A stretch of DNA of 64,000 bases from Candidatus Latescibacterota bacterium (GTDB lineage Bacteria; Latescibacterota; UBA2968; UBA8231), in assembly GCA_965248265.1 (NCBI GenBank), contig CBDFJF010000001.1, positions 2,176,001 to 2,240,000 of the forward strand, in the 5' to 3' direction. The position numbers were made by a program, and so were the translations under genes. Positions 39,353 through 63,037 of the stretch are shown piece by piece. The notes beneath the pieces are model-generated. The model had not been told where the DNA came from. It saw only the letters and a program-made list of their open reading frames with translations, and searched no databases. How positions within the stretch are numbered: the first letter of the stretch is position 1; every line of letters starts with the position of its first letter.

Positions 39353-40333
39353 ATGAGCACTGAACCACTGGTGAGCGTGCTGATGCCCACCTACCGGCGA
39401 GCGGCGTACATCGGTGAGGCGGTCGCGAGCATTCTTGGCCAGACCTTCAGCGACTGGGAACTGATCGTCATCGACGACGGCTCAGACGACGGCACCGAGG
39501 CCGTGGTGTGCGGTGTGACCGATCCGCGAGTCCGCCTGCTACGCCAGCAACACCGCGGTATCAGCGCAGCTCTCAACACGGGGCTGGCGGCTGCGCGGGG
39601 ACGTCTGGTGGCCCGGCTTGACTCGGACGACATCTGGCTGCCCGACATGCTCGAAACCCAGGTTGCTGCACTCGATCGGGTGCCAGAGGCCTGTCTGTCC
39701 TATGCCCGGGGCCAGGCCATGAGTACCACTGGCGCACTGCTCCAAGATGTGTGGGGCCTGCCCCTTCACTACCCTGGCGACGCCTTCCGCAGCATGGTGT
39801 TGGGTGACTCGACCTGTAACATCACTGTGGTAGTACGACGGGCCTGCCTGGACCGCGCCGGTTCCTTCGACGAGTCCATGCAGACCGGCGAGGATTGGGA
39901 TATGTGGCTGCGCGTTTCGCGACATGGCCAGTTCGTCTTCACCGACCGGGTGCTGGCGCGCTTCCGCCGGCACGGGGAGCAGATATCGGAAAGACCGACA
40001 CGCGACCGCGACCGCGCGGACCGGGTGCGGGTTCTCGACAAGCTGTTCCGAGACCCGAGCCTGCCGCCCGAAATCGGGGCGCTTCGCGGCCTGGCCTACA
40101 GCAACGTGGCGACCGGCAACGGACTGATGTGGCTGGTGGAAGGTAAATACGGCCTGGCGGCACGCGCTTTCGCACATGCGCTGCGCATTTCGCCCCAGCC
40201 GCTCCTGACAATAAGCCGCATCACCTGGTTCGGCCTGCGCTGGCGAGTGCTCGACCGAAACCGGTGGGGCCGTTGTCTGGCCAGTGGCTTTACACGCCTG
40301 CTACACCGCACACGCCAGCGAGGGGAGAGATGA
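39353..40333 (+). CDS. Glycosyltransferase family 2
   Basis: LVSVLMPTY, IDDGSDDGT, LDSDD, EDWDMWLR. Confidence 0.92.
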   Translation: MSTEPLVSVLMPTYRRAAYIGEAVASILGQTFSDWELIVIDDGSDDGTEAVVCGVTDPRVRLLRQQHRGISAALNTGLAAARGRLVARLDSDDIWLPDMLETQVAALDRVPEACLSYARGQAMSTTGALLQDVWGLPLHYPGDAFRSMVLGDSTCNITVVVRRACLDRAGSFDESMQTGEDWDMWLRVSRHGQFVFTDRVLARFRRHGEQISERPTRDRDRADRVRVLDKLFRDPSLPPEIGALRGLAYSNVATGNGLMWLVEGKYGLAARAFAHALRISPQPLLTISRITWFGLRWRVLDRNRWGRCLASGFTRLLHRTRQRGER

Positions 40334-44758: not shown

Positions 44759-45658
44759 TTGACACTGCCACTCGAACCCATGCTGCGGAAGCTCAGAGCT
44801 GCCGTCGGTTACGGAGCGCCTCTCTTGCGGGCGCGACGATCCGGAACACGTCGTGTTGGCGTGATGACCTGCACCCTCGACGAAGCGGCGTGCGCGGCCT
44901 TCACCGTAGGGGCGTTCGCCGATCTCGTCGACACCTACGTGCTCATCGACACGGGGTCGACCGATGGGACCCTGCCGTTGATCGAGAACATGTATGCTCA
45001 GCAGATTTCCGATGGCCGGCTGATCGTTGAGCAACTCGGGCGCCTTCCGGACTTCAGCATGGCGCAGGCGCGGGCGCGGGCGCTGGAGATTCTCCGTGCC
45101 CAGGAGATTGACTACTTCCTCAAGATTGACGCCGACGAAGTGTTCTACGACGCCGGCGCACACAGACTCGTGCAGATTGCCCGCCGGCTTCCGTCACCCG
45201 TCACCTACGTATCATGCTCGCTCCGGGAGCTCTACCAGTGGGAGCTGCAAACCACGAGCGATTGGCTACAGGCGCTCGACGAGCAACGCGATGTCTTCTG
45301 GGAGATGTCGTTCGTTCCCCACAAAGATCTTGTCTTCCGCGTGACGGGAGCGTACACTCACGGCCGGTGGACGGACGAAGCCCAGGGCCTCCCCGCAGAG
45401 GGCATCGCCCATCACGGCCCCATGGTTCGAGAGCGGGCAATAGGGGTCCTGGCCGCGCACTACGGCTGGGCGCGCCCCGTCGAGTGCAAGCGCGCCAAGA
45501 GCCTCGCTTGGCATGGCGATCCCGCGGCAGATCCCCGCGTCGATCGCCTCCACCACCTCACCGACGATCGGCGGCGACCCCGCCGTCGGTTTCGCCGCCA
45601 CCCGGAGGTTATTCGCAGAAAGCTGGGTGCGGTGCGGGAATGGCTTCACGCCCGCTGA
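44759..45658 (+). CDS. Glycosyltransferase family 2-like protein
   Basis: IDTGSTDGT, KIDADE, HYGWA; start uncertain. Confidence 0.75.
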   Translation: MTLPLEPMLRKLRAAVGYGAPLLRARRSGTRRVGVMTCTLDEAACAAFTVGAFADLVDTYVLIDTGSTDGTLPLIENMYAQQISDGRLIVEQLGRLPDFSMAQARARALEILRAQEIDYFLKIDADEVFYDAGAHRLVQIARRLPSPVTYVSCSLRELYQWELQTTSDWLQALDEQRDVFWEMSFVPHKDLVFRVTGAYTHGRWTDEAQGLPAEGIAHHGPMVRERAIGVLAAHYGWARPVECKRAKSLAWHGDPAADPRVDRLHHLTDDRRRPRRRFRRHPEVIRRKLGAVREWLHAR

Positions 45659-45674: not shown

Positions 45675-46000
45675 TCAACGCAACAGCGATATCATCTGCT
45701 CCACTGCTTCCGGCTCAAGATCTAATGTTCGGGAAATTTCGCGGCTGGGTGTATCGTGCTCCATATAGTACAGACAGAGAAGCCAATTACGCACTGCAGC
45801 AGGTTGCTTCGAAAACACGGTCCCGGTCAAGTCATCGAACGAGCGCACACAGTTGTGGCAGTAGTAACGGCGCAGATGCGGTAGAGCATCATCCGAGCCA
45901 CTCTGGCTAAACTCGTCGCCGCCACATTCCGGACAGAATATGCCCTTATCCCATCGGACACGGCGAAGCGTTTCAAAACAGCTGGCGTCGTCCGCGAGGT
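45675..46000 (-). mobile_element. IS1595-family transposase N-terminal zinc-ribbon/HTH remnant
   Basis: DDASCFETLRRVRWDKGIFCPECG...RYYCHNC...FDDLTGTVF...WLLCLYYM...SREISRTL; no DDE domain. Confidence 0.7.
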
Positions 46001-46841
46001 CGCCGGTCTCGAGTTTTCCTGAAAATGCGACGCTCGGCGTTGGCAAGACCCTGGCGATTTCTTTTTCAATGCCATTCAATTGCCACGCAGCATCGGAAAA
46101 GGAGCTGCCGAAACTGCCGATCACTTTGCGACATCTCGACAGGCAGTACAGATCAACCACAGCGTCTTAAATCGCTATCGGATCATTCCGATCGTAGGAT
46201 CTCTTCCGGTGTGTGCTTATTCGCTTAGGAAAGGCCTCTCGCAGCCGTTTCTCCTCCGCTGCAGAGTCGGAGGCGACATAAAATACAGTATCGCTATTCG
46301 CTCCTATTTCCTCTTCCATCAAACGAATGAATTCCTCGGTCGGGCTATATCTAATTGGCCACTCCCCATCCGCGCGCCTCAAGTGAACTCCAACCATTTG
46401 ACCAGATTCACCGAACCGAGAATCGATGAGCCGCTGAAGCGGCTGAATCGGCACGAAATCGCCGAAGCGAGAGGTTCCTTCGTGAAATCGTTTGCAGGCG
46501 ATGATATCGGTTTTCTTGCCTCTGACTATGCCCTCGAGATCACAGCCTCGCTCATGTAAATCCTGCATGTTGGCATCTGTCAAATGCAGGTTGAAAAACA
46601 TTCGGAATACTAGGCGAATCAGCCGCAGAACGATTTTACCCGTAAGACTATTTCCGTTAACGTGGTATAGCCTTTTGACACTGGCAGGCAAAATGAAGAG
46701 GTCGTCAAACCTGCAATTCAATTCTGGACTTAGATACCAGACGACGTACAGCTCTTCTTGTGTTGCCTTGCAGAGAGAGATAGCGGAGTCCAAGCTCCGC
46801 ATGCGATTGCTCAAACCGGCCAGAGGTACGATCGCTATCAT
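45675..46841 (-). pseudogene. Fucosyltransferase-like glycosyltransferase interrupted by an in-frame TAA, with an IS1595-like zinc-ribbon at the C-terminus
   Basis: AGLSNRMR, GVHLRRAD, FYVASD, then ...DPIAI*DAVVDLYCLSRC...GSFGSSFS in one frame; TAA at 46167-46169. Confidence 0.75.
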
Positions 46842-46852: not shown

Positions 46853-47806
46853 CTAGAGCCGCGGCAACCGTCTGCGCACTTCACTCACGACGACCCTGCC
46901 CAATCGTTTCGCCGTGGACCCTATCTGATACGTTATAAACTCTCGAGCCTTCGCCCCCGCGCGCGACCCGATTGGCCTTTGAGTCCTCGCGAGGACCTCC
47001 TCAATAGCATTGAGAATTCGATCTGGATGATTCGCTTGAGGGGCGTGACCCTGGGGATAGCAGGGCTGCTGCAGATAGTCCATGTATTTACTGTCGTCAC
47101 TATCAACGTCGATCACGTGCTGAACCAAATCCTCCATCGAAGAAAAATCGTGGAAATTGATGAATCGGCGCGTATTGAAATCGCGACCCACCCAGTCGTT
47201 CCCCCAATAGATTGGTAGAGACTCGGCTAACAGGGCATCTGTGAGTTTTTCGGTCGTGTAACCACGGTAGGAAACATTCTCGAAAGAGATAACGAATTTG
47301 CACTCCCGGTAGAACTCAAGCTTGTCTTCGACACGCCCCCCTACGTTATTGAATAGCTTTCCACCAGCGCGAACGGGCCTGTAACTCGACAACATCCTGA
47401 ACAACTGATTTCTCTGATCACACCGGTGATTCGAGTACAGGAAAGCGCAGAAGTGTTTCTTTTGATCGAGAATTCGATGCGGATCTTGCGGGGGGTCGCC
47501 TTCGAGTGACTCGATGGCGCCCAGTGCGTAGAGAGGGAGACGGTACTGTCGGTCCTCATACGGCATGTGGTCGAAAGAAAATGCGAAGTCGCACTCTTGG
47601 AAACGAGGGGGCCGTGCTTCTCCGGTATAGAAAATTCGCGAGCAGCTGAATCGTGTGAATCTGTGGCCAAACGTTGCGTAAATCAACAGCTCGGGCCGCG
47701 GACTCACTTCAACTTCGAACCTCCGGCGAAGCAGTCGCGAAAAGTAATTGTCCTCGACGTCAAAGCCGGGCCAAAAATCAGAGTAGTTTACTAAGAGTCT
47801 GCGCAT
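46853..47806 (-). CDS. Glycosyltransferase family 10 (alpha-1,3-fucosyltransferase-like)
   Basis: RIFYTGE, YRLPLY, KKHFCAFLYSN, KFVISFEN, GYTTEKL, PIYWG, FINFHDF. Confidence 0.92.
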   Translation of the reverse strand: MRRLLVNYSDFWPGFDVEDNYFSRLLRRRFEVEVSPRPELLIYATFGHRFTRFSCSRIFYTGEARPPRFQECDFAFSFDHMPYEDRQYRLPLYALGAIESLEGDPPQDPHRILDQKKHFCAFLYSNHRCDQRNQLFRMLSSYRPVRAGGKLFNNVGGRVEDKLEFYRECKFVISFENVSYRGYTTEKLTDALLAESLPIYWGNDWVGRDFNTRRFINFHDFSSMEDLVQHVIDVDSDDSKYMDYLQQPCYPQGHAPQANHPDRILNAIEEVLARTQRPIGSRAGAKAREFITYQIGSTAKRLGRVVVSEVRRRLPRL

Positions 47807-47833
47807 ATAGGGTGGGCACTGGGAGACAATCAC

Positions 47834-47905
47834 ATGACGTTCTATAGTCAGTCCGGTCAAGATCGGTTTCTTGATTCGAAAATCTTCCACAAACTCTCCG
47901 GACGC
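47834..47905 (+). pseudogene. Truncated 5' remnant of an FkbM-type methyltransferase
   Basis: GGAG RBS then MTFYSQSGQDRFLDSKIF, the typical YSQxGQD FkbM start; similarity lost after ~22 aa. Confidence 0.5.
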
Positions 47906-48130: not shown

Positions 48131-48919
48131 TCAACCCAGGTACCGACGAAGGCCTTTGAGACTTCTCAGCTTTTCACCAAAACTATCTCTTCTTGCTATG
48201 ACGACCGAACCTCTCTTGCGCCCCGTCTCATCCGCGGAGGGCTGGCTAGGAAAGAAGACCTGTAAATCCTGTTTCTCTAGAAAGGCACCAATGTGATCCA
48301 GAGTCAAGCTCAAACCCGATGCATAATGATCATAACCATATCCCTCGTCACCGGGTACTCGGAAATCGTCAACCATAATCGCAAATTCTTTCACACTACC
48401 TGATATCAACTCTATCTCTCCAAGCAGCGGAGAATCATCGTACGAGTGTGCATCCAGATAGAAGAAAACAGCCTTTGCACCAATGACATCTCGTTGGAGT
48501 ACACGGCGCAGAAACTCTCGAGAGTCATGGTTGTACAGGGCGACATTCTCCATATCGCTAAGGTGCATCTTCGCGATCTTATGAAATCGAGCTTGAATCT
48601 CCGCAGAATAGACGGGGAGCCCCGTGCGGTGCGCCATGAAACCAGTTGTACTGCCAATCCAAGTACCGGTTTCAACGATAACCCTGAAGGGTAGCGATTG
48701 CATCAACTCAAAGAAAATCCCCTTGCGCCCATTCTGGCCATTGAACGCAAGCTCACTTTCCGGGTCGAACCTCGGATGCTCGATCAAGATATCCACGACG
48801 AAATCCAGCTCTTCCACCCGCCTCTCAAGGCCACCGATGCGTTGATTGATCTTGTGAAAATACCTTCTTACACATTTTGGCGTCAGGGCTCTTAACGCTT
48901 GTTTCACAACATTTGGCAT
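48131..48919 (-). CDS. Class I SAM-methyltransferase-like protein of glycan loci
   Basis: IVETGTWIGSTT, YSAEI, FYLDAH, MVDDFRVP. Confidence 0.7.
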   Translation of the reverse strand: MPNVVKQALRALTPKCVRRYFHKINQRIGGLERRVEELDFVVDILIEHPRFDPESELAFNGQNGRKGIFFELMQSLPFRVIVETGTWIGSTTGFMAHRTGLPVYSAEIQARFHKIAKMHLSDMENVALYNHDSREFLRRVLQRDVIGAKAVFFYLDAHSYDDSPLLGEIELISGSVKEFAIMVDDFRVPGDEGYGYDHYASGLSLTLDHIGAFLEKQDLQVFFPSQPSADETGRKRGSVVIARRDSFGEKLRSLKGLRRYLG

Positions 48920-49013
48920 TTGTCGGATTCCTATATATACAAGATCACGGTCGGATGTCCATGGAGGGTCATGGCCGGCTTCTCTGGGTGGCCGACATTG
49001 TTCTCCACGACGT

Positions 49014-49763
49014 TCAATGCGGGGATTCCAAGAGGCGGCGAAACGATTCACGGATAAATCTGGCGGTACGCCTGACCTTCACTCTTAGAGTAAAGCGATG
49101 AAAGAACACATCACCCAAGAAGGACTCGATGATGTTGCTCCACGACTGACGATCGGACATCCCTCCGGCTCTCATGACAACGGTGACTTCATCAGAGAGG
49201 TGATATCGTGCCTTGGGATAATGTTGGATTCCAAACAATGCATCGGAAATGATCCGAAAGCGCTCGTTGTAGAGCCCGACTCGATCGTAAAACGCTCGTC
49301 TGATGAACGTTCCCGGATGGGGGAAGTTGTAGTGCCGTTGCTCAGAAATGTACCTCGGCACCCATGTGTGACCTGCACCGATCTCAGGCGTCTCGATCCT
49401 GATCGCGGTCGCGATCAAGTCGTACCCGGGGCGCGTGATTCTTGCCACGTGATACAACACGGACGCGTCGGCGTAGCGATCGTCAGAGTTGAGGATGTGG
49501 ATCCACTCACCCGATGCCAGGGCAATCCCCTTGTTCATCGCGTGATACGCCCCTCGATCTGGCTCGGAGATCCACTTCATTCTGCCCTCGAATCGGGGTC
49601 CGTGTTGTCTCAGTATTTCTACCGTTTGGTCGGCTGAATCACCATCGACGACGAGGTATTCATAGTCATCGAATTCCTGATCGAGGACGGATTCCAGTGT
49701 GTCGCGGATCGTGTCAGCACTGTTCATCGATACAGTGATTATGGTGAAGAGCGGCTGGCTCAT
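49014..49763 (-). CDS. Glycosyltransferase family 2 (WcaE-like)
   Basis: FTIITVSMN, VDGDSADQT, SEPDRGAYHAMNKGI, LNSDD, HPGTF. Confidence 0.9.
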   Translation of the reverse strand: MSQPLFTIITVSMNSADTIRDTLESVLDQEFDDYEYLVVDGDSADQTVEILRQHGPRFEGRMKWISEPDRGAYHAMNKGIALASGEWIHILNSDDRYADASVLYHVARITRPGYDLIATAIRIETPEIGAGHTWVPRYISEQRHYNFPHPGTFIRRAFYDRVGLYNERFRIISDALFGIQHYPKARYHLSDEVTVVMRAGGMSDRQSWSNIIESFLGDVFFHRFTLRVKVRRTARFIRESFRRLLESPH

Positions 49764-49964
49764 CTCACTGCCGTCGTGCCGGGATGGGTCGGGCCTCGTG
49801 GGAGCTGCTGCACTCGAGGCAAGGGGTTTACTGTTTGTGGGCCCCAGCAGCAAAATAGGCCGGTCGGCGTTGAGCAGACCTCTCTCAACCAGTCTGAAAA
49901 ACTCTGCGTTCTCCCCATCCAATCACCACCTGAGACAAGAGGTCACGCCACTCGCCGGCTTTCG

Positions 49965-50762
49965 TCATCTCGATTTCACGAACACGAAGTTAGCACCGTA
50001 ACGATCCACCTCGGTGAATCCACGAGCCTTGATCAGCTCTCCGAGGGCCGGCACATCGTATCGGGTTGCCCTGAACGTCGTGGGGTGCAACTCGATGATC
50101 ATCCAGCTGCAAAGCGCTAGACTGTCCTCGTCCGCCAGAAAGAGCCCGGCCTCGGCGCCTTCGATGTCCGATACAAGACAGAACTCACCGAAGTCGTACC
50201 GCTCGAGCAAGCTCTTCAGGGTAACGCACCGCACCTCGTCCGAATCACTGTCAGGCTGATCGGGCGAAGCCAGCCGACCTCCCAGATGATAGGCATTCTT
50301 GACAAACCGCACCCGCTGATCGATGACTTGGTCGTACGCAATCGCTGCGTTCACCACGTCCACGTGCCCTCCGCAATTTTCAGCGGCGGTTCGTTCGAGT
50401 AGCCTGAAGAGGTCCTGATCCGCCTCGACGCTAATCACTCTCCGCGCGTTCCTACACACCTGAGTCGTGATCACTCCGATGCCGGCGCCGAGCTCGATCA
50501 CGTTCGCCTCAGAAGGAAGGTAGCGCCGCACGAAAGTCGCTTCAGCGCGCTCGTAAAGGCGAAAGAAAATTGAAGCCTTCGTCCCCGGAGACATCCTCGC
50601 GTGCCCAACGTCTATGGCACATCCGTAGAATGGAATCCGGTCCCCGAAGAGCCGACCGACCAGGCGCCCGACCCACGGCAACGTCAGGCATGTCGTGACG
50701 ATCTTCTTGAGCCTCGGGGGCACGAACCTCCGCACCCAGTTTCCCACGATCACGCGTCTCAT
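49965..50762 (-). CDS. FkbM family methyltransferase
   Basis: YERAE, VIELGAGIG, SDIEGAE, IIELHP. Confidence 0.85.
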   Translation of the reverse strand: MRRVIVGNWVRRFVPPRLKKIVTTCLTLPWVGRLVGRLFGDRIPFYGCAIDVGHARMSPGTKASIFFRLYERAEATFVRRYLPSEANVIELGAGIGVITTQVCRNARRVISVEADQDLFRLLERTAAENCGGHVDVVNAAIAYDQVIDQRVRFVKNAYHLGGRLASPDQPDSDSDEVRCVTLKSLLERYDFGEFCLVSDIEGAEAGLFLADEDSLALCSWMIIELHPTTFRATRYDVPALGELIKARGFTEVDRYGANFVFVKSR

Positions 50763-51035: not shown

Positions 51036-51812
51036 ATGCTAATTAGTCTAAGATCGCTATGTACCAAACATGGTATTGAAAGCTTCGGAGTGCTTCATAT
51101 CGGTGCCCACAAGGCTGAGGAGCGAGACGAGTATAAGAAGTGCGGAGCATCCAAAGTTATTTGGATCGAAGCAGATCCTGATCTCGCGAATCAACTGAAG
51201 GCCAAGATTTGCGAGAGTGAATCAATCTTCGATGAGGAGAGAGTTTTCAACCACGCAATCTTCGATGTGAACGGCAAGACGATGGACTTCAACGTGACCA
51301 ATAATACCGAGGCTTCTTCGCTACTGGACCTGGGTACACACAGGAAATCGTATCCGGAAATAGTGGTTGATAGGACCGTCAGTGTGGTTGTGAGACGAAT
51401 TGATTCGCTCGATAAGGAATACCCGGATTTATTGGACTCTCTAGACTTCCTCAATTTGGACATACAAGGGGCGGAATTTCCAGCCCTGGTCGGATTTGGA
51501 GACTCCATAAAGCAGTTCAAATGGATCTACACCGAAGTAAACAGGAAGAATGTCTATTTAGGAAATGGCATGATCTGGGATATTGACAATCTGCTTTTGC
51601 AATATGGCTTTTTCCGGAAAGATACCGTCTTTACTTATCAGTACTGGGGCGATGCTTTCTATGAAAAGCGAACCGATTTAGCTGATGTTCGCCGTTTCAT
51701 ATACAAGGCGAGGATTCGTTTTCAGTACCTATGGTGGGCTATAGCAGATTTGCCAGTACCAAAACTCATGATCAGGGCCCTGAACAAGACCAAGCGCCTG
51801 ATCGTGAATTGA
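51036..51812 (+). CDS. FkbM family methyltransferase (visibly AT-richer gene)
   Basis: VLHIGAH, WIEADP, SSLL, LNLDIQGAE, IYTEVN, WGDAFY. Confidence 0.88.
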   Translation: MLISLRSLCTKHGIESFGVLHIGAHKAEERDEYKKCGASKVIWIEADPDLANQLKAKICESESIFDEERVFNHAIFDVNGKTMDFNVTNNTEASSLLDLGTHRKSYPEIVVDRTVSVVVRRIDSLDKEYPDLLDSLDFLNLDIQGAEFPALVGFGDSIKQFKWIYTEVNRKNVYLGNGMIWDIDNLLLQYGFFRKDTVFTYQYWGDAFYEKRTDLADVRRFIYKARIRFQYLWWAIADLPVPKLMIRALNKTKRLIVN

Positions 51813-51831: not shown

Positions 51832-52764
51832 ATGCGACTAACCGTTGCGATATGTACTTGGAACCGGGCAAGCTTGCTTGATCGGACTCTGGCACGGATC
51901 GCGCAAGATGAGACGACTGGACTAGAATGGGAAGTACTGGTCGTCAACAACAACTGTACAGATGACACAGATGCTGTGATCGCACGACATCAGCGGCACC
52001 TGCCGGTGCGCCGGATACTGGAGCGCAGGCAGGGCCTCTCCAACGCCCGCAACGCTGCCGCGATGGCGGCGCGCGGAGATCTTATCGTATGGACTGACGA
52101 CGATGTCCTTGTCGGCGACGGCTGGTTGCGTGCGTACGAACGGGCCGCCCGCCTGTACAGTGAGAGTTCCTTCTTCGGGGGACCGATAGTCCCGGAGTTC
52201 GAAGGCGCGGCACCGAAGTGGCTCATGGCTGCTCTGCCACACGTAGGGGGTGTGTACGGTACGCTCGATCTGGGTGTGGAAACTCACGAGCTCACCCCTT
52301 CCGCCCTGCCCTTCGGTGGGAACTTCGCGGTTCGGACTGCAATTCAGCGATCGTACTTGTATGACCCGGATGTTGGCCGCATTGGGAAGGGCATGTTGAG
52401 CGGGGAAGAAACGACGGTCATGCTCCGGATGCTTGGCGACGGGTACAGTGGACAGTGGCTCCCCGACGCCACACTCCAACACTTCGTACCACGAGAGAGA
52501 CAGACCGCAAGACACATTCGGAGATACCACAGCGGCAGCGCGGAGACACAGGAGCGACGTCGGCCTTGCGGCAAGGGACCGTTGATTTTCGGGAGACCCA
52601 GGGGTCGCCTTTGCAGGCTCGTCATCGCAGAGTTGTGGTACCGCATCCGACGGCTGTCCTCACCTCCTGAGGTTTGGATCAAGGACCTGATCAGAGTAGG
52701 CTGCCTGGAGGGGGAGTGGCGTGGTTTGACGCCGCCGAGCGCAAGACCGTGCGCTGGGGCCTGA
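51832..52764 (+). CDS. Glycosyltransferase family 2
   Basis: TVAICTWNRA, VVNNNCTDDT, GLSNARN, WTDDD, SGEET. Confidence 0.9.
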   Translation: MRLTVAICTWNRASLLDRTLARIAQDETTGLEWEVLVVNNNCTDDTDAVIARHQRHLPVRRILERRQGLSNARNAAAMAARGDLIVWTDDDVLVGDGWLRAYERAARLYSESSFFGGPIVPEFEGAAPKWLMAALPHVGGVYGTLDLGVETHELTPSALPFGGNFAVRTAIQRSYLYDPDVGRIGKGMLSGEETTVMLRMLGDGYSGQWLPDATLQHFVPRERQTARHIRRYHSGSAETQERRRPCGKGPLIFGRPRGRLCRLVIAELWYRIRRLSSPPEVWIKDLIRVGCLEGEWRGLTPPSARPCAGA

Positions 52765-52805
52765 TCGTTCGCTTACGCGCAGTGCATGGTCCTGGCCTCA
52801 GAGCG

Positions 52806-54062
52806 ATGTGCGGTGAGAGAATCAAGTCGTTTTTGCGTCATCTTCGCGTAGGGCTGCTAAAGTGCACGAGCCTGGGCAGGCGACTGGTCGATTGGAGGCT
52901 TCAACGCCGGATCCGCTCGGTACCTCTTGAGCGACTGTTGATGGGCCAAGAGGCAGGTATTCCAGCGGCAGTCTACTCGCGATACGTTGACGATCCGATG
53001 CGCCCTTCGACGCCAGTTGCGCATTCGCCCCATGTGAAATTGCTCGAACAGTACGTGGCAGACGGTGCGAATCTGTTCCAGCGGGACGTGTTTCACAAGA
53101 CCGACTACTATCGGTCTGCGTGCAAGACAATTGATATTGCCGGGAACTACTTCGAGGCTCGCTCAGAAGACCAGATAGTTGATGTCGCACGACGCTTTGT
53201 GGCTTGGTTCAGAGGTGTTGCGGGCACGGCAACAGGGACCCAACCAGGACGCTCAGCTCCCGGTTCTCCGGTAATCGTACAACCCGTGCGATTCTCAAAC
53301 TGCTACCAGGTTGTTGACGGCCACCACCGGTTGGCAATCCAGTGCGCACGGGGCGCATCCGAAGCAAGTGTACTCCCGGTACGTTCCGAGGTTTTGACAC
53401 CAATCCAGTCAACCGTTTTGGACGTAGTTTGGACGGCTGGGCGGCGCGAGCTGTATCAACCCATTGACGCCCCTGAGCTTCAAACCTGGCCGTTAGTAAG
53501 GCGTTGCTCAGATCGCCTGGAGAAAATGCGCGAGTTCCTTCGAGATGAGGGAATTCAGGCGAGCTCCGGCAGCAGCTATCTGGATGTCGGATCGAGCTAC
53601 GGCTGGTTCGTCAGCCAAATGCTGAGGCTCGGATTCGACGCCTGCGGGGTGGAGATGGACCCGGTCTCGGCTTCGATTGGTCCGATGGCGTACGGGTTAG
53701 ACCCTGCGAGAGTCCACGTCATGGATAGCATCAGCTTTCTCCGGTCGAATTCAAAGCAGTTCACCGTCACGTCGTGTTTCAGCGTCATTCATGTCTTTGC
53801 GACTGGGAAGAAGTCGATCTCAGCCGAGGAGTTCATTCGACTCGTCGACTTGAGCACTGAGAAAGCTATGTTCATCGACACGGGACAGAACCACGAGACT
53901 TGGTACCGCGAATCACTTGCCCAATGGGACGAGGACTTCATTCATGACTGGCTCTTAAGGAACACTTCCTTCCATCGCATCGAACGCCTGGGCGTTGACC
54001 AAGATGCGGTTCCTCCGTTTGAGGACTCCTACTCGCGAATGCTGTTTGCATGCACCAGATGA
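52806..54062 (+). CDS. ParB/Srx-like domain fused to a class I SAM methyltransferase
   Basis: YQVVDGHHRLA motif, then YLDVGSSYGWF and CFSVIH; start uncertain. Confidence 0.65.
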   Translation: MCGERIKSFLRHLRVGLLKCTSLGRRLVDWRLQRRIRSVPLERLLMGQEAGIPAAVYSRYVDDPMRPSTPVAHSPHVKLLEQYVADGANLFQRDVFHKTDYYRSACKTIDIAGNYFEARSEDQIVDVARRFVAWFRGVAGTATGTQPGRSAPGSPVIVQPVRFSNCYQVVDGHHRLAIQCARGASEASVLPVRSEVLTPIQSTVLDVVWTAGRRELYQPIDAPELQTWPLVRRCSDRLEKMREFLRDEGIQASSGSSYLDVGSSYGWFVSQMLRLGFDACGVEMDPVSASIGPMAYGLDPARVHVMDSISFLRSNSKQFTVTSCFSVIHVFATGKKSISAEEFIRLVDLSTEKAMFIDTGQNHETWYRESLAQWDEDFIHDWLLRNTSFHRIERLGVDQDAVPPFEDSYSRMLFACTR

Positions 54063-54086: not shown

Positions 54087-55058
54087 TCATTGGTGCTCGG
54101 TGGAGACCTTCCTCACTTGCTCCTCGATCCACGGATAGGTCTCGCCGATTCCGTCCCGCACAGTGTACTTCGCCGACCATCCCTGCGACATGATCTTGTC
54201 GACCTTGTGATACCTTGCCTGTACGCCGACCGGCCCTTCGACGTACTTGATGCCGATCTGCTTGCCGGCTACCTCGGCCACGGTATCCACCAGTTCCTGG
54301 ACTGTCGTCAGCTCGGTGCTGCCAATGTTGGTCGGTTCAGTAACATCTGATTGCATCAGTGTGTATATGCCAGTGCACATGTCTGCGACGTAGGTGTATA
54401 CTCGCAGCGCGCTCCCATCTCCCCACACCTCGATCTCGTCGCCATCGCTGGCCATCGCGACCTTCCGACACAGGGCGGCAGGTGCCTTCTCGCGCCCGCC
54501 TCGCCATGTGCCTTCCGGCCCGTAGCAATTCTGGAAACGGGCGATACGGACATCCAAACCTCGGTTTCGCGAAAACGCCAAAGCCACACGTTCTGCGTAC
54601 AGCTTCTCCCAGCCGTACTCATTGTCGGGCAGGGCCGGATACGCATCTTCCTCTGCGATGTACGATTCACCCTGCTGCTGGTCGCGATACACACAGGCTG
54701 ATGAAGAAAGGAAGTAGCGACCAACTCCTGCGTTGCAGGCTTCACTCACCATGTGAAGGTTGGCCAGCCCGCTGTTGATCATGATCTCGCATTCGGCCGA
54801 ATGGATGAAACCCATCCCTCCCATGTCGGCGGCGAGCTGGTAGACTTCGTCAAAATCGTCACGGCCATCAAACGCCACCGCCCGTTCGCAGTTACCGCGA
54901 TCCCGCAGGTCGAGCAGCTGGAAATCATCGGCACTCGACGCGGAGAACTCCGGCTCTTTCAGGTCTACGCCTCTGACCCAGTAGTCTCGAGCTTTCAGGA
55001 ACCGGACGAGATGATGGCCAATGAAGCCACCGGCGCCGCAGACAAGTGCCTTTTTCAT
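54087..55058 (-). CDS. NAD-dependent epimerase, GDP-mannose 3,5-epimerase-like
   Basis: GAGGFIGHH, LAADMGGMGFI, SSSACVY, YGWEK, GREKAPAALCRK, VWGDG. Confidence 0.88.
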   Translation of the reverse strand: MKKALVCGAGGFIGHHLVRFLKARDYWVRGVDLKEPEFSASSADDFQLLDLRDRGNCERAVAFDGRDDFDEVYQLAADMGGMGFIHSAECEIMINSGLANLHMVSEACNAGVGRYFLSSSACVYRDQQQGESYIAEEDAYPALPDNEYGWEKLYAERVALAFSRNRGLDVRIARFQNCYGPEGTWRGGREKAPAALCRKVAMASDGDEIEVWGDGSALRVYTYVADMCTGIYTLMQSDVTEPTNIGSTELTTVQELVDTVAEVAGKQIGIKYVEGPVGVQARYHKVDKIMSQGWSAKYTVRDGIGETYPWIEEQVRKVSTEHQ

Positions 55059-55284
55059 GAGTAAGACCTTTCGTGCGCTACCTCGAAAACGGTGGAGTGT
55101 GACCGGTGCTCTCAAACATGGCGGATTGAAGCGAAATCCCCAAAGCTTCAAGCGTGTCCCCACGTGGCATAGACAGCTCTACGGATTTCAGCATAGATTC
55201 TCTCCTTCCATGCCCGGCGTCCACCGTTGCGCCTTTCCAACACCTTAGTGGTAGCTCCCCATAGGGGTTGACGCTCCGACTCAC

Positions 55285-56757
55285 ATGACCACCTGCATAG
55301 TCGCCTTTCTAATCGCGTTTTTCGTGTCAATTGTCATTACTCGGTCGATTATCCGCGTTGCCGTCCGTCTCGACTTCGTGGATAAACCTGACTACGTACG
55401 AAAGTTTCACCAAAACGCCGTGCCGTGTGTAGGTGGCGTAGGCATCTTCATCGCGTTCTTTGTGCCCGTCGCAGCACTGTTCTTCTTCTACAAGAATTTC
55501 ATCTCCGAGCAGCTACTGCACCTTCCCATAGAACTTCTGGGTCTGACGGCAGGAGCGACCATCGGGTTGGGACTGGGATTTTTTGACGACGTCCGCGGCT
55601 TGCGCATGCGCTGGAAGCTTCTGCTTCAGGCTGTTGCAGCGACTGCGGCCTTCGCCACCGGTTATGCGATCGCTGAGATCAGTATACCGTTTGTTGGTGT
55701 GATTGAAGTAGGGGTCATCAGCTATCCTCTCACTCTGTTTTGGTTCTTGGGCTGTATGAACGCTCTGAATTTTCTTGACGGACTGGACGGGCTGGCAGCC
55801 GGTGTGAGTTTGCTGGTGTCGATTACGCTGTTTTTGGTCAGTCTCATTTTTGAAAACCGGGTCGGCATGGTGCTGTCGATCAGTCTGGCTGGAGCTATCC
55901 TGGGTTTCCTGCTCTACAATTTCCACCCTGCACGCATTTTCCTTGGTGACTCGGGCAGCATGCTCCTCGGATTCCTGATCGGGGCCCTGTCGATTCTGGC
56001 AGGTAGAAGCACCGAGAACACGACGACCGTCTCACTTTTCATTCCCCTTATCGCCCTCGGTTTGCCGATCCTGGATACTTGTCTCGTGATTGCCCGACGC
56101 TGGTTTCGCAGGGTTCCTATCGCCGAGGCTGACCGCCGTCACATCCACTACGCTCTGATCTCGATGGGCCTGAGTCACAAGCGCACGGTCCTCATTCTCT
56201 ACCTGGCCAGTGTTGTATTCGGTGTTTGCGCCCTGTTGATCACATTTGAGCGAGGCGAGGTGGTCATCCTGGTTCTTGGAGCAATGTGTATTATCGGCTT
56301 TGTTTGTGTGCGCGTGTTTGCTGGAGTGACGATGGCTGCTCTTTTCAGCAGAGGGTTTGACGCCGGTGCCAGATCCGCACTGGAGAGGGCGCTGCTGGAA
56401 ATGCACGTTGAAGACACCCCAGAGCGTGTCTGGCGTTGCTGTCACCCAGTGTTGGCAGCGGTCGGGTTAGACCGGGCCGAACTGCATCTGCTTGACGAGG
56501 TCTCAGCACAGATGACGATATTGCGATGGACCCGAACGGATGATGCCGAGCCAAGTGATCCTGTACCCGGCAGTGGCGATCATTGGTCCGCCAATCTCAC
56601 GATCTATTCGCCGACTTCCGACATCAAGGGAGAATTGGTCGTGGCCAAGACGTCGCGACTCGGACATCGGGCAAGCCTGGCTTCAGAAGTCCTCGACACG
56701 TTACGCCTGGCCCTAGGCGCAAACCTGGAACGCCTCAAAACACCCCCTGAGTCATAA
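55285..56757 (+). CDS. wecA: WecA/TagO-type undecaprenyl-phosphate GlcNAc-1-phosphate transferase with a C-terminal soluble extension
   Basis: DKPDYVRKFH, GFFDD, NALNFLDGLDGLA, YNFHPARIFLGDSGS, ADRRHIHY. Confidence 0.88.
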   Translation: MTTCIVAFLIAFFVSIVITRSIIRVAVRLDFVDKPDYVRKFHQNAVPCVGGVGIFIAFFVPVAALFFFYKNFISEQLLHLPIELLGLTAGATIGLGLGFFDDVRGLRMRWKLLLQAVAATAAFATGYAIAEISIPFVGVIEVGVISYPLTLFWFLGCMNALNFLDGLDGLAAGVSLLVSITLFLVSLIFENRVGMVLSISLAGAILGFLLYNFHPARIFLGDSGSMLLGFLIGALSILAGRSTENTTTVSLFIPLIALGLPILDTCLVIARRWFRRVPIAEADRRHIHYALISMGLSHKRTVLILYLASVVFGVCALLITFERGEVVILVLGAMCIIGFVCVRVFAGVTMAALFSRGFDAGARSALERALLEMHVEDTPERVWRCCHPVLAAVGLDRAELHLLDEVSAQMTILRWTRTDDAEPSDPVPGSGDHWSANLTIYSPTSDIKGELVVAKTSRLGHRASLASEVLDTLRLALGANLERLKTPPES

Positions 56758-56787
56758 CCCAAGCAAAGAGGAAGAAAGAGCATCGGA

Positions 56788-57963
56788 CTATCTCGAGAAA
56801 TCCCTTACGACTGTCCGCAGCTGATCCACGAACCGATCTGCCGAGAACAACTCCTTCCGGCTCAACACATACTCGCTGAGAGAAATTTGTAGTTCTGAAT
56901 CTGAAAGAACCCGGTCGATCCTGTGAACTGCCTGTTGCACATTTCCGTAAAGTAGCCGTTCATCTCCACCGACGATCTCTACGGGCCCCCCCTCGTCTGG
57001 CACGAACACGATGCACCCGGCCCGCTGCAGCTCCGCCACCACAATTCCGAAGTGCTCGCCTGCCATGCCGTGAATTCCATATCTGTTGTTTGCCATCAGG
57101 TCGACGAGTTCGCCGCGCGGCAAATCTATATGAATGTTCACCCAGGTTTGATGGCGTGCAGCCAGTTCAAAAACGGCACGTGTATAGGGTTTACTATCGG
57201 GGGTTCCGACCAGGTGAAAGTTAATATCGTGTCCTCGCTCACGCACCTGAGCGAGGATTTCAATCAGCTTGAGCTGATCCTTTTCTGGGGAAATACGGCC
57301 GACGCAGACGAAGCCATTGTCGCGCTCTATCCAGGGCACTTCGGGGAAGAACCCTGGAACTGGCGGATACAACGTCGTCGAATCAACACAGTACGCCTCG
57401 TGCATCTTGCCGGCGATGTAGTCAGAATTCACCAGCGACAGGTTTTTCCGCATGCCATCAACATCGAACCCACCGATAGCCAACTTGCACGTTGCCCTAT
57501 AGCCTTCCAGCAGTGCAGCGGGGGCGTGATACCAGCGTAGATCCACCTCGGGGCGCGGCAAGTAACCCCACGGGAAGTGAATGTACTGAATACCTCGCTG
57601 TCCGAAATCGACCTCGTTGGCGGTACTGATGACCGCATCGTAGTGGTGGGTCTTCAGGTGCGCTTTTGTGGCTCGGAAGAAGAGGCACATGTGCAGCAAG
57701 CTCAGTGGTGTGGGCGCCACATCCAACAGGGCATGTAGGCCAGTATTGGTGAGGTGTAGTCTGAAATCGGAAGGCTTCAATGACGTGCCGAAGAATCTGT
57801 TGACTGCGTTACAGTCGCATGGCTTCGTGGTCAACAGGGAGACATCGTAGCAACCCCGCAGGGCCTGCAATACCCACGAGGCGACCGCGTTGCTGCCTCC
57901 AGGCGGTTGCAGGGACGGCTGAGTGACAAGCACTTTTTTTCTGGTACGAGTGCTTTCACTCAT
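56788..57963 (-). CDS. GT4 glycosyltransferase, ALG11-like mannosyltransferase
   Basis: PPGGSNAV, YIHFP, VNSDY, LYPP, VGRISPEK, GIHGMAGEHFGIVVAE parallel the ALG11 motifs GGGGERV, YVHYP, VNSSW, VYPP, GQFRPEK, GLHTMWNEHFGIGVVE (recalled). Confidence 0.75.
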   Translation of the reverse strand: MSESTRTRKKVLVTQPSLQPPGGSNAVASWVLQALRGCYDVSLLTTKPCDCNAVNRFFGTSLKPSDFRLHLTNTGLHALLDVAPTPLSLLHMCLFFRATKAHLKTHHYDAVISTANEVDFGQRGIQYIHFPWGYLPRPEVDLRWYHAPAALLEGYRATCKLAIGGFDVDGMRKNLSLVNSDYIAGKMHEAYCVDSTTLYPPVPGFFPEVPWIERDNGFVCVGRISPEKDQLKLIEILAQVRERGHDINFHLVGTPDSKPYTRAVFELAARHQTWVNIHIDLPRGELVDLMANNRYGIHGMAGEHFGIVVAELQRAGCIVFVPDEGGPVEIVGGDERLLYGNVQQAVHRIDRVLSDSELQISLSEYVLSRKELFSADRFVDQLRTVVRDFSR

Positions 57964-57965
57964 TG

Positions 57966-59288
57966 TCAATACCCCAGCAACCCTGCTCGTGCGTGTTTCC
58001 GCCAACTCTCATCCCAGCTTTGTTGCCGGCAACCGGCAACTCCGAGGCGCAACTCGTCCAGTAGCGGGGTGTCGGTTGGGAAGCCACTGAACAACTCGCG
58101 CAACTGCTCTTTCAATTCGGCCGGACCATCGAAAACCAGTCCGTTCACTCGATGTTGGACCTGCTCTGCCAGACACGGTCCGTAGTTCAAGGCGGACACG
58201 GGTAATCCGGCGCCAAACATGTCCATGATTTTCATCGGCAGGTCTACCTTGGACGACGACCGGTGGAGGCATAAGCCCAGATGCACAGCTCCAAGCAAGC
58301 GTTGGTACTCGCGGTACGGCAACCACAGCGTGCGCAGATGGACCCGTGACGGAGGCAGTCGCATGGCCTCACGTTCGAAAGCCATCTGCCCAGGACCCTT
58401 TCCCGTGATTAGAATCACGAAATCGGGCATCGCCTGGTCATATTCTTGTGCTGCTATTTCCAACAGTAACGAGACCTCTTCATCATAGGTCCAACTCGTT
58501 GGACAGACGATCCACACCGGTGGCCGTGGCGTTATCGGCAATTCGAGCTCCTGACGAAGCCGCCCGAGCAACTCGCGGGCCGGCTCTGGTGCGGTTGGCT
58601 CGAATCCCTGCGCGGGTCGATCATAGAGCAGAACAGGATCGGCAAACCCCCACCGCTGGGTCAGTTGAGCTTGCATCGCGGCTGAAACACACAGGTGATG
58701 ATCCGCCCTGCCGCCGCATGTTCGTTCCAACCATTGGTGGAGGAATACCAGCGGGCTTCGCCGTCCCAGCCGGAGGGCGACCATCGAATAACCGTAATTG
58801 TGCCAATCGATGACGTACCTGGCCGAGCGCAGACGCGCGACAACGAATGCTACCAGCAGAGTCGGTATTGATGGTGGATTCTGCACGAACACAGTATCGG
58901 GACTTCTGAGGCCGAACAGCAGGGCCCGCGTAAGTTGGATCGTATCCTGCAGTACTCTTACAACTGAGTGCATGACGAACAGCAGTCGGTTCCTACGCAT
59001 GAAGTCACTGGCCGAGGTCCGACGGAGCGCGTGGACCCTGATCATGGGATGATTCTCAACTGCATCAAACAAGTCGGTTTCCGCATAACCTACGAGGTCG
59101 ACCGCCGCCCCGGCATCGGCCAGAGATCGGGCGTGGTACTGCATTCGCGGGCTGCGGCCCAAGTCGCCCAGAACCACGATCGCCACCCGGTGTGCTGGAA
59201 CGGACTGTAGGTGATCCGGTATCAATTTCTGAGTCGTCAGTATCCCGAGTACCCTCACGCGAACCCCAGGCAGTTCCCGGGGACGCAA
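57966..59288 (-). CDS. ALG1-like chitobiosyl-PP-lipid beta-1,4-mannosyltransferase (GT33)
   Basis: VVLGDLGRSPRMQYHA, QNPPSIP, IDWHNYGYS, TSWTYDE, ITGKGP, LGLCLHRSSSKVDLPMKIMDMFG, NGLVF, WDESW: the ALG1 motifs in order; start uncertain. Confidence 0.9.
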   Translation of the reverse strand: MRPRELPGVRVRVLGILTTQKLIPDHLQSVPAHRVAIVVLGDLGRSPRMQYHARSLADAGAAVDLVGYAETDLFDAVENHPMIRVHALRRTSASDFMRRNRLLFVMHSVVRVLQDTIQLTRALLFGLRSPDTVFVQNPPSIPTLLVAFVVARLRSARYVIDWHNYGYSMVALRLGRRSPLVFLHQWLERTCGGRADHHLCVSAAMQAQLTQRWGFADPVLLYDRPAQGFEPTAPEPARELLGRLRQELELPITPRPPVWIVCPTSWTYDEEVSLLLEIAAQEYDQAMPDFVILITGKGPGQMAFEREAMRLPPSRVHLRTLWLPYREYQRLLGAVHLGLCLHRSSSKVDLPMKIMDMFGAGLPVSALNYGPCLAEQVQHRVNGLVFDGPAELKEQLRELFSGFPTDTPLLDELRLGVAGCRQQSWDESWRKHARAGLLGY

Positions 59289-59410
59289 GTGGTGACGTCA
59301 GGCCTGGAAGCAAGATACGTCCCCTCTGGTTCGGCGCCATATAGCCGCCGGCTGTTTCGATATAGACGTGGGCTCCGACGCCCGGCTGATTGTTTATTAT
59401 TGATGCACGG

Positions 59411-59434
59411 CTGCTTGACATGCAGAAGGTCGCC
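59411..59434 (+). repeat. Direct repeat of the tRNA-Val anticodon arm (att-like remnant)
   Basis: CTGCTTGACATGCAG is identical to 39033-39047, followed by AAGGTCGCC versus tRNA GAAGTCACT. Confidence 0.6.
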
Positions 59435-59460
59435 ACCCGTTGCCAATCATTGGATGCCGC

Positions 59461-60648: not shown

Positions 60649-60675
60649 CTACTGCAATTTCGTCAACCTAACCAG

Positions 60676-61515: not shown

Positions 61516-61603
61516 TCTCCGTCTCCTTTAAAGCGCATGTTGGAATAGTCAGGACTGCGACCATCTATTTTCGATTGCCCCTACGAGTTATGTCGCTGAA
61601 ATT

Positions 61604-61620
61604 CGCAATTGCCGTGCCAC
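61604..61620 (-). promoter_or_regulatory. sigma54 promoter upstream of the sigma70 gene
   Basis: Minus strand TGGCAC-GGCAA-TTGCG. Confidence 0.7.
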
Positions 61621-61865
61621 TTTCTCATGATGATCCTTTACTTATTGTTTATACCACGCTTACGGGATTCACGATGAGCTACAGTGCACTCGGCCGCAGT
61701 CTTATACAGCCAATAGTGACACCCTTTACCCAGTTCGACTGCCAATATGGCACAGCAAGCGACGTGCGGGAGGATCACAGACCTCGGGCCCGTTTTTGAC
61801 ACCGACTTGTAGCGCCGCTCAGGACTCCCAGCTCAAAGCTTGCGGCGTGTATCGAACACAGTACA

Positions 61866-62523: not shown

Positions 62524-62556
62524 AAACTCGTCAACCATCATCAAGGAGAAATGACA

Positions 62557-62994: not shown

Positions 62995-63037
62995 ACTCAG
63001 GGCCACGGATTCCACTACCCCGGTTCTGACAAATGAG

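Follow-up and report, generated by a model that had tools for sequence, protein, structure and literature searches.

A bacterial ALG1 (GT33)-type mannosyltransferase homologue in an accessory gene island that also encodes an oligosaccharyltransferase in a Candidatus Latescibacterota bacterium

Within a stretch of 64,000 nucleotides from the genome of a Candidatus Latescibacterota bacterium (GenBank assembly GCA_965248265.1, contig CBDFJF010000001.1, forward-strand positions 2,176,001 to 2,240,000; this whole stretch is referred to as the window), an open reading frame (ORF) at positions 57966..59288 of the minus strand encodes a homologue of ALG1. Judged by its sequence, the predicted protein is a true bacterial member of the ALG1 family (GT33, the CAZy family of the eukaryotic chitobiosyldiphosphodolichol beta-1,4-mannosyltransferase), and not a generic GT4 or WcaI-like glycosyltransferase (GT). 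The gene is the last of a ~20-kb island (window 39.2-59.3 kb; Table 1) that also encodes an AglB/STT3-family oligosaccharyltransferase (OST); the island is accessory, and a linkage of ALG1-type and STT3-family genes recurs in other bacteria. We favor, at a probability of about 0.65, a reading of these data in which the predicted enzyme acts as a beta-1,4-mannosyltransferase on an N-acetylhexosamine (HexNAc) or chitobiose primer linked through diphosphate to a lipid, inside an OST-dependent N-glycosylation island.

Results

The translated ORF carries the motifs of eukaryotic ALG1

The ORF is uninterrupted and yields at most 440 amino acids when read from a TTG codon. Its translation contains, in this order, VVLGDLGRSPRMQYHA, QNPP, IDWHNYGYS, TSWTYDE, ITGKGP, LCLHRSSSKVDLPMKIMDMFG and WDESW, so that the series of ALG1 motifs and the bacterial surroundings given in a preliminary description of this DNA both held up on re-examination; the neighboring genes encode a sigma-70 factor, a PBP5-type D-Ala-D-Ala carboxypeptidase and NamZ. 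When the protein was aligned with 12 named eukaryotic ALG1 proteins, to which it is 36-43% identical, 78 columns were invariant, among them the core residues of each of the seven motifs: V39 L40 G41 D42 G44 S46 P47 R48 M49 H52 and Q136 P138 P139 in motifs 1 and 2, D161 H163 N164, T264 S265 W266 T267 D269 E270 and T295 G296 G298 P299 in motifs 3-5, and H342 S344-S346 D349-K353 D356-G359 and W425 W429 in motifs 6 and 7. The cores of these family motifs (VLGDxGRSPRM..H, QNPP, DWHN, TSWTxDE, TGKGP, HxSSSxxDLPMKxxDMFG and WxxxW) are also invariant in 23 bacterial homologues.

Database searches gave the same picture. BLASTP aligned residues 28-432 of the 440 with P0389, a Branchiostoma protein named by NCBI as chitobiosyldiphosphodolichol beta-mannosyltransferase-like, with 163/437 identities (37%; E 2e-94). 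A phmmer search of 1.84 billion cluster representatives (clusters formed at 50% identity) returned 3119 clusters at E <= 0.001, of which 1887 reach <= 1e-10 and 844 reach <= 1e-30, and proteins of 440-540 aa that align in two stretches are present among the best 150 matches. The EukProt protein P0288 was found in this way with 277 bits and 42% identity; its 119 other relatives listed are animal and fungal ALG1 wherever they are named. Eukaryotic chitobiosyldiphosphodolichol beta-mannosyltransferases (0.98-0.99) are included in the nearest named clusters of the Atlas, which is built on a protein language model, and the JGI label beta-1,4-mannosyltransferase is attached to 36 of 120 homologues among the matches listed.

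Pfam and NCBIfam returned generic domains only (a GT4-like N-terminal and a GT1 C-terminal domain from Pfam), because neither collection has an ALG1-specific model. We considered whether the protein might be WcaI or another generic GT4 enzyme and rejected this identity: the WcaI model NF007640 scores 23.6 bits against a cut-off of 276, and the similarity to ALG1 is stronger by tens of orders of magnitude. A sequence search of the PDB produced no match for the protein, and thus no GT33 structure detectable in this way. An AlphaFold2 model computed with the 23 bacterial homologues (pLDDT 87, pTM 0.86) shows a GT-B fold with two Rossmann-like domains, and all Foldseek matches of this model are GT-B proteins, the nearest structures being GT4 enzymes (MshA, BshA, PglA, WaaG) at 10-16% identity. 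These matches agree with the fold and do not discriminate between families. From its sequence family, the protein is predicted to be an inverting GT-B enzyme.

Start codon, N-terminus and base composition

The public gene call for the locus (P0001, 403 aa) begins at GTG 59177 and thereby removes an Arg-Val preceding VVLGD that our alignments show to be kept in both bacterial and eukaryotic ALG1 homologues. This start lies within the first conserved beta-strand region, and the call is probably 13-37 codons too short. Three in-frame candidates are present upstream (TTG 59288, GTG 59258 and TTG 59225); all three are likely starts, and inspection of the DNA revealed a clear ribosome-binding site at none of them. 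Ahead of VVLGD the protein has no hydrophobic segment, and hence no transmembrane anchor, whereas the eukaryotic sequences compared have one. This N-terminal membrane anchor divides the eukaryotic from the bacterial members of the family and is not defining for catalysis.

The guanine-plus-cytosine (GC) content of the gene is 0.60, in line with the window, and values near the gene range from 0.56 to 0.60. Promoter and terminator sites predicted by a scan of 54-60 kb were no commoner than in shuffled sequence.

ALG1 homologues are widespread in bacteria

The preliminary description had regarded ALG1 as mainly eukaryotic, a view that is out of date. Xu et al. (2025; bioRxiv 10.1101/2025.10.15.682550) ran BLAST with the human ALG1 sequence and recovered 204 bacterial sequences and one doubtful archaeal sequence; our own count stands at 270 species-level bacterial genomes and at the 3119 clusters mentioned above. 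To obtain the 270 genomes, a single genome of each GTDB species was scanned with patterns taken from an alignment, and 270 of 305 pattern matches were confirmed as relatives. A first protein search had scored 8000 candidates, of which 2074 reached E <= 0.001. Six metagenomic clusters are 70-85% identical to the window protein and are followed by many at ~50%, which NCBI names Binatia, Binatus or 'Deltaproteobacteria'; sequences from Binatia, 'Deltaproteobacteria' and Methylomirabilota share 44-51% identity with the window protein. The window protein is about as similar to the Acidobacteriota homologues (41-46% identity) as it is to eukaryotic ALG1. The best 80 of the 270 genomes are all metagenome-assembled genomes, 38 of them from Acidobacteriota and the others labeled Binatota, 'delta proteobacterium', Pseudomonadota, Myxococcota, Methylomirabilota, Rokuibacteriota, Verrucomicrobiota or Planctomycetota.

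A bacterial ALG1 gene is therefore of a kind already known, and the window gene is a further member of its family. Lombard (2016; PMC4973528) recognized no prokaryotic relatives of Alg1 at that time and called the origin of Alg1 unknown. Xu et al. (2025; 10.1101/2025.10.15.682550) report beta-1,4-mannosyltransferase activity for three of five bacterial homologues tested, GaALG1 (Gammaproteobacteria), PoALG1 (Polyangia) and BiALG1 (Binatia). These three complement a yeast alg1-delta mutant and yield Man-GlcNAc2-PP-phytanyl, a product that human ALG2 extends (10.1101/2025.10.15.682550). Their text states that archaea are without reliable ALG1 homologues, argues for a bacterial origin of both ALG1 and ALG2, and is silent on the native role of the enzymes in bacteria; the terms PglB, STT3, operon and gene cluster each occur zero times in it (10.1101/2025.10.15.682550). 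Our literature search, which covered a limited library and the main text of this preprint, found no description of an ALG1-STT3 linkage; when it was widened by phylum names, only papers on eukaryotic STT3 came up, and a preprint on environmental plasmids names AglB solely for a Methanosarcina plasmid. The gene context of bacterial ALG1, that is, its linkage to OST, ALG13/14-like and ALG2-type genes, may be new.

The window gene lies on the bacterial side of the ALG1 tree

A maximum-likelihood tree was computed from 71 rows: the window protein, three close metagenomic relatives, 29 named bacterial loci, 12 named eukaryotes and 26 unnamed sequences (row L009 was left out as too short). A single branch with an SH-aLRT support of 100 separates all 12 named eukaryotes and 18 unnamed rows from all 29 named bacteria, the window group and eight unnamed rows. 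The window protein and its three close relatives group together with a support of 100 and are joined next, weakly (84), by a Phycisphaeraceae sequence and unnamed rows; path lengths from this clade to the nearest named bacterial relatives amount to ~1.3 changes per column. When five generic GT4 proteins were added as outgroup, the branch between them and the 71-row ingroup again received a support of 100, with the window gene in the bacterial ALG1-like part, so that the protein does not group with generic GT4/WcaI-like enzymes. Under a site-heterogeneous model with these five distant outgroups the eukaryotic clade remained intact (99). With a length of 10 the outgroup branch was saturated, supports beside the root of the outgroup-rooted tree were 9-11, and the eukaryotes were nested in bacteria at 80-92 only; for these reasons (the saturated outgroup branch and the near-root supports) neither the root nor the direction of any ancient transfer is fixed.

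Two homologues in the bacterial part of the tree, L078 (labeled Bifidobacterium breve) and L039 (Betaproteobacteria), sit on very short branches inside a Vicinamibacterales/Acidobacteriota clade, and their contigs are probably mis-binned or mislabeled.

The preliminary description had left open whether the gene came from a eukaryote or marks a lineage of bacteria that matters for where ALG1 arose, and had proposed a phylogeny as a check. The tree separates eukaryotes from bacteria and leaves the direction of transfer undecided. The window gene lies deep on the bacterial side of the support-100 branch, and therefore was not transferred recently from a eukaryote; recent eukaryote-to-bacterium transfer into this genome and contamination are ruled out. 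The second alternative fits our data and had already been put forward in the preprint. If the possibility of a chimeric assembly is added, an explanation by recent eukaryotic acquisition, contamination or misassembly is still extremely improbable. Its sole point in favor is the high similarity to eukaryotic ALG1, and it is opposed by the position of the gene nested in bacteria with the 12 named eukaryotes across the branch, by the missing N-terminal anchor and the missing low-complexity inserts of the eukaryotic sequences, by a GC content equal to that of the window, and by the continuity of the locus with bacterial DNA on both sides.

This continuity can be followed in the sequence data as far as they reach. 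The window lies within a 3.18-Mb contig (3,178,793 bases), and of the words sampled from 53-62 kb, 98-99% are present in four runs of one sample; no RNA run was among those listed. In three of the four runs (X1-X3), Logan contigs connect the 3' end of the gene to the GT4 and WecA-type genes (54936-58190) and its 5' end to the amidase and sigma-factor genes (58817-63000), in both cases with 0 differences. No contig spans the whole gene: the middle Logan contig (58165-58836) overlaps its neighbors by only 20-30 letters (58165-58190 and 58817-58836). A chimeric assembly is thus not indicated as far as could be tested; since runs X1-X3 may be the source of the assembly, this agreement shows consistency but does not amount to independent proof. 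Runs X5/X6 come from another sample and contain short conserved pieces only. An apparent joint from 52952 to 55980 was disregarded, its shorter side being only 21 letters long.

ALG1-type and STT3-family genes are recurrently linked in other bacteria

We inspected 80 loci, the best of the 270 genomes and taken from named genomes, over +-10 kb around the ALG1 homologue (less at contig ends); all ORFs were translated and searched with the window proteins, with iterated hidden Markov models and with the proteins of locus L010. Of the 80 loci, 32 have an STT3-family ORF no more than 10 kb away from the ALG1 homologue, and all 32 belong to the 42 loci from outside Acidobacteriota; several of the 10 non-acidobacterial loci without an OST have short flanks. 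Other recurrent genes within the same distance encode a fused MurG-like GT28 enzyme (36/80), an ATP-binding cassette (ABC) transporter (34/80), an ALG2-type GT4 enzyme (28/80) and a WecA-type transferase (GPT; 14/80), and in 14/80 loci the OST, GT28, ALG2-type and ABC genes occur jointly. An orthologue of the GT4 gene next to the window's ALG1-type gene (>=40% identity) is found near the ALG1 homologue in 16/80 loci. In the 38 Acidobacteriota loci, an ABC gene was found in six and an ALG2-type gene in two.

The identity of the linked genes was examined further. All eight OST ORFs sampled passed the Pfam STT3 model, and the motif xWD[YFH]G is present in 26 of 29 OST sequences, 17 of which have WWDYG itself. 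Both ALG2 signatures of Xu et al. (G-x-G-G-A-E-R and E-H-F-G-x-x-P-x-E) occur in 19 of the 28 ALG2-type matches. Locus L010 has the gene order OST, GT28 (divergent), GT2, ALG1-type, ALG2-type, ABC; in a PDB search its OST returned only a weak match to the C-terminal domain of a Pyrococcus AglB.

The island of the window and its oligosaccharyltransferase

The genes of the island are listed in Table 1. The three domains of its OST (PF02516, 70.6 bits against a cut-off of 24.5; PF18079, 44.8 against 23.6; PF22627, 27.0 against 27) give the architecture of an STT3 N-terminal membrane domain, an AglB core and an AglB_L1 peripheral domain. Its best PDB match is Archaeoglobus fulgidus AglB-L (A. fulgidus; 3waj, E 2.1e-25), and the Asp of its VDPYY and its DHHVAE align with NDPWY and DHHIWE of this protein (AfAglB). 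The best half-size PDB match of the ABC half-transporter is C. jejuni PglK/WlaB (1.5e-64). The putative primer transferase scores 116 bits on the WecA model (cut-off 326) and matches MraY (3.4e-16) and human DPAGT1 (1.6e-13) in the PDB; it carries a C-terminal extension of ~150 aa (residues ~340-490) without a family match. The public start of the GT4 partner gene, ATG 57963, lies 2 nt past the stop codon of the ALG1-type gene, and the two genes are for this reason probably co-transcribed. Homologues of the GT4 partner bear generic names only, and a PDB sequence search gave it no match.

Table 1. Predicted genes of the island, with window coordinates
Feature	Position	Strand	Basis or remark
GT2 glycosyltransferase, first island gene	39353..40333	+	family-model scans
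AglB/STT3-family OST, 862 aa	40264..42852	+	Pfam, NCBIfam, PDB
ABC half-transporter, candidate lipid-linked oligosaccharide flippase	42875..44683	+	PF00005, NCBIfam, PDB
ORF with weak GT2 match (20.5 bits, under cut-off)	44759..45658	+	family-model scans
IS1595-type transposase zinc ribbon ORF, probably insertion sequence (IS) remnant	45675..46160	-	borders low-GC stretch
224-aa ORF without family match	46167..46841	-	family-model scans
GT10 alpha-1,3-fucosyltransferase-like	46853..47890	-	PF18025 91.9 bits, PF00852 74.9 bits
306-aa ORF without family match	48131..49051	-	family-model scans
GT2 glycosyltransferase	49014..49922	-	family-model scans
FkbM-family methyltransferase	49965..50762	-	family-model scans
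FkbM-family methyltransferase	51036..51812	+	family-model scans
GT2 glycosyltransferase	51832..52764	+	family-model scans
Weak methyltransferase-like match, under Pfam cut-off	52674..54062	+	Pfam
NAD-dependent sugar-nucleotide epimerase/reductase	54087..55163	-	best model GDP-L-fucose synthase, far under cut-off
WecA/MraY/ALG7-family polyprenyl-phosphate HexNAc-1-phosphate transferase	55285..56757	+	PF00953 139.4 bits
GT4/GT1-family glycosyltransferase, EX7E motif EHFGIVVAE	56788..58005	-	PF00534 64.5 bits
ALG1 (GT33)-type mannosyltransferase homologue	57966..59288	-	sequence comparison, tree, model

The GC content falls to 0.52-0.53 across 46-52 kb, compared with ~0.60 elsewhere. This 6-kb stretch (46000-52000) holds the fucosyltransferase, a GT2, both FkbM methyltransferases and the two ORFs without a family match, and it looks like a separately acquired decoration cassette.

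A second AglB/STT3-type OST of 862 aa, 49% identical to that of the window and with the motif WDFG, is encoded elsewhere in the genome (C1:1202920-1205391). Its neighbors encode a PhyH protein, a metallophosphoesterase, an MFS protein and an aldo-keto reductase, and the sole nearby glycosyltransferase is a GT4 enzyme ~6 kb upstream. Just upstream of the island, positions 30545-35365 of the window encode a TMEM260-like GT-C protein (938 aa, PF11028 174.7 bits), a GT2 enzyme and an LPG_synthase_TM protein. This trio looks like a separate set of the lipid-linked sugar or protein O-glycosylation type; it is kept at 79-85% identity in the metagenomic contig L113, which is without the island.

The island is accessory

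Neither an ALG1-type orthologue nor an OST was found in any of 40 related genomes (24 of the same family and 16 of the same class), where the best other match to the ALG1-type protein was a generic glycosyltransferase (E 8e-7); the GT4 partner has an orthologue, at 40% identity, in one of the 40. A scan of metagenomes yielded five close relatives at 81-90% protein identity. On contig L113, collinearity with the window is kept on either flank, but blastn shows positions 39154-58701 (19,548 bp) to be missing; this block begins 200 bp before the first GT2 gene and ends at codon ~196 of the ALG1-type gene. No long repeat is present at the junction (L113:10575 vs. window 39153/58702). Because the ALG1-type gene is truncated in L113, we interpret the gap to mean that the lineage of L113 lost the entire island by deletion. 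L113 is also without a match to window 59360-61925, which carries the amidase and sigma-70 genes. The ALG1-type gene is intact in contigs L110 and L111, where homology to the window ends at its stop codon. The island is accessory, the ALG1-type gene is mobile and dispensable in the lineage of the window, and horizontal transfer from other bacteria is the probable source of the island.

Discussion

A putative route for lipid-linked glycan assembly and protein N-glycosylation

In the reading that we favor, the WecA/ALG7-type transferase would prime the polyprenyl lipid. The ALG1-type enzyme would then most likely move mannose from GDP-mannose, in beta-1,4 linkage and at the cytoplasmic face of the membrane, to the reducing-end N-acetylhexosamine or chitobiose of the polyprenyl-diphosphate-linked primer, so that it and the translationally adjacent GT4 enzyme extend the lipid-linked primer. 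The GT2 enzymes, the GT10 fucosyltransferase and the FkbM methyltransferases may decorate the glycan, the ABC half-transporter would flip the lipid-linked oligosaccharide, and the AglB/STT3-type OST would pass the glycan to asparagine residues of exported proteins. The donor, acceptor and linkage named here are suggested by homology to the enzymes that Xu et al. (2025) assayed; the sequence of the steps, the flipping and protein N-glycosylation as the end point are what we infer for the island. The acceptor is the weakest step of the scheme, because the genome is without the GT28 enzyme that accompanies the ALG1 homologue in 36/80 loci.

Several observations weigh against this scheme. Some concern the individual proteins: over 821/831 positions of the TIGR04154 archaeo_STT3 model the OST of the window reaches 315.7 bits, under a cut-off of 450, and it reads AWDFG where the motif is WWDYG; the ABC half-transporter is about equally similar to HepA (266 bits), PglK (261.6) and MsbA (260.1), in each case under the cut-off. 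Others concern the genome, in which no Alg14 match was found, in which the sole GT28 match lies on contig 2 and is probably murG, and in which there is no ALG2-type orthologue (best match E 2.7e-14, 28% identity). Because this genome has no Alg14 match, no GT28 in the island and no ALG2-type partner, it offers no support for a chitobiose primer or a trimannosyl core. A third group concerns the arrangement of the genes and their fate: 15 kb, with the IS remnant and the low-GC cassette, lie between the ALG1-type gene and the OST gene; the ALG1-type gene of L110 (715-1926) stands beside a Mutator-family transposase just upstream, with DsbA/DsbB-like genes downstream; and two different records, L112 and L114, contain the same frameshifted copy spread over three reading frames, which suggests a circulating pseudogene allele. 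Finally, some homologues elsewhere do not follow the pattern. An OST is present within 10 kb in 0/38 Acidobacteriota loci, and a GT28 likewise in 0/38; STT3 matches over the cut-off were found in 0/5 Acidobacteriota genomes with an ALG1 homologue; the ALG1 homologue of L088 (9986-11239) lies amid genes of purine catabolism, its neighbors encoding xanthine dehydrogenase subunits, an aldehyde dehydrogenase, amidohydrolases, allantoicase and uricase; and, according to the preprint, the deltaproteobacterial DeALG1 and the Methylomirabilota enzyme MeALG1 are inactive on GlcNAc2-PP-phytanyl (10.1101/2025.10.15.682550).

The Acidobacteriota data, together with the IS remnant and the fucosyltransferase/GT2/methyltransferase cassette of low GC content, which resemble O-antigen-type clusters, can also be accommodated if the protein is a true ALG1-type mannosyltransferase that works in a surface polysaccharide, lipopolysaccharide/O-antigen-like or glycolipid pathway for which the WecA-type enzyme supplies the primer, with the OST functionally unrelated or serving another glycan. 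An ABC transporter no closer to PglK than to HepA or MsbA and a second AglB paralogue outside any glycan cluster agree with such a pathway as well. We nevertheless consider it unlikely, given that 32 of the 42 non-acidobacterial loci have an STT3-family gene no more than 10 kb away, that L113 misses precisely the block from the first GT2 gene via the OST to the ALG1-type gene, that the ALG1-type and OST genes are both missing from 40/40 relatives, and that no Wzy-type polymerase, O-antigen ligase or Wzx was seen among the scanned ORFs of the island, two of which have no family match.

The missing partner genes bear on a further explanation, in which the protein belongs to the ALG1 clade by descent and has acquired a different specificity here, for another donor, acceptor or linkage. 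This would account for a genome without the GT28/ALG13-14-type and ALG2-type partners that accompany the homologue in 36 and 28 of 80 loci, and it would be in keeping with the inactivity of two of the five assayed bacterial homologues on GlcNAc2-PP-phytanyl and with the ~1.3 changes per column that separate the window clade from its nearest named bacterial relatives. The window protein keeps, however, every motif core that is invariant in the 12 eukaryotic ALG1 proteins, and its identity to these (36-43%) is near that to the Acidobacteriota homologues (41-46%), so that we regard a changed specificity as quite improbable.

Implications for other bacteria and for the eukaryotic pathway

The recurrent linkage allows a wider and more tentative proposal, for which we see slightly less than even chances. 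The typical bacterial line would comprise a WecA/ALG7-type primer enzyme, a fused MurG-like GT28 enzyme equivalent to ALG13/14 and encoded divergently from the ALG1-type gene, an ALG2-type enzyme with both ALG2 signatures, an ABC transporter and an STT3-family OST a few kb off; bacteria of at least seven phylum labels (Binatota, Methylomirabilota, Rokuibacteriota, Myxococcota, Pseudomonadota, Verrucomicrobiota and Planctomycetota) might thereby N-glycosylate proteins with a Man(1-3)GlcNAc2-like core. The island of the window would then be a remodeled variant that keeps the ALG1-type and primer enzymes and has an AglB-type OST, with fucose and methyl decoration replacing the GT28 and ALG2-type steps, and the whole module, instead of individual mannosyltransferase genes, may have passed between bacteria and the eukaryotic stem lineage.

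Taken alone, the window gene is a further representative of a bacterial ALG1 family already reported and partly assayed. Its linkage, in the family at large, to OST, MurG-like, ALG2-type and ABC genes gives the family a testable native role, namely bacterial N-glycosylation with a eukaryote-like core. The linkage also touches on the question of whether single enzymes or a module were inherited by eukaryotes, and is thus relevant to the origin of the endoplasmic reticulum pathway; compact loci of this kind could supply parts for building N-glycan cores of the eukaryotic type in E. coli. The OST-less Acidobacteriota copies and the decaying copies in the closest relatives indicate that members of the family also have other roles or none.

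Comparison with known systems

With eukaryotic ALG1 the window protein shares homology from end to end (36-43% identity), all seven motifs and the predicted GT-B fold. It differs in having neither the N-terminal anchor nor the inter-domain inserts, in being encoded in a bacterial island, and in belonging to a genome without an ALG13/14-type or ALG2-type partner; its lipid carrier is presumably undecaprenol instead of dolichol. The likeness to WcaI and generic GT4 enzymes extends to the GT-B fold and the GT4-like and GT1 domains of Pfam.

The pgl locus of Campylobacter (PglC/A/J/H/I, PglK, PglB) resembles the island in combining an initiating phosphoglycosyl transferase, cytoplasmic glycosyltransferases, an ABC flippase and a single-subunit STT3-family OST in one locus. 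Unlike in the pgl system, the OST of the window is AglB-like, PglB not being among its PDB matches at E <= 0.01, and the initiating enzyme is of the WecA/MraY family, whereas that of pgl is of the PglC type. To our knowledge, the pgl locus has no counterpart of the ALG1-type enzyme. The archaeal Agl systems with AglB (A. fulgidus AglB-L, PDB 3waj/5gmy) share with the window the architecture of the OST, and the Asp of its first motif and the D-H-H..E of its second align with theirs; here the host is a bacterium and the OST has AWDFG instead of WWDYG. Judged by the taxa, the window protein falls into the same bacterial clade as the ALG1 enzymes of Xu et al. (2025), and to the enzymes described in the searched text of that preprint the present analysis adds the gene context, which that text does not contain, with an STT3-family OST as a recurrent neighbor.

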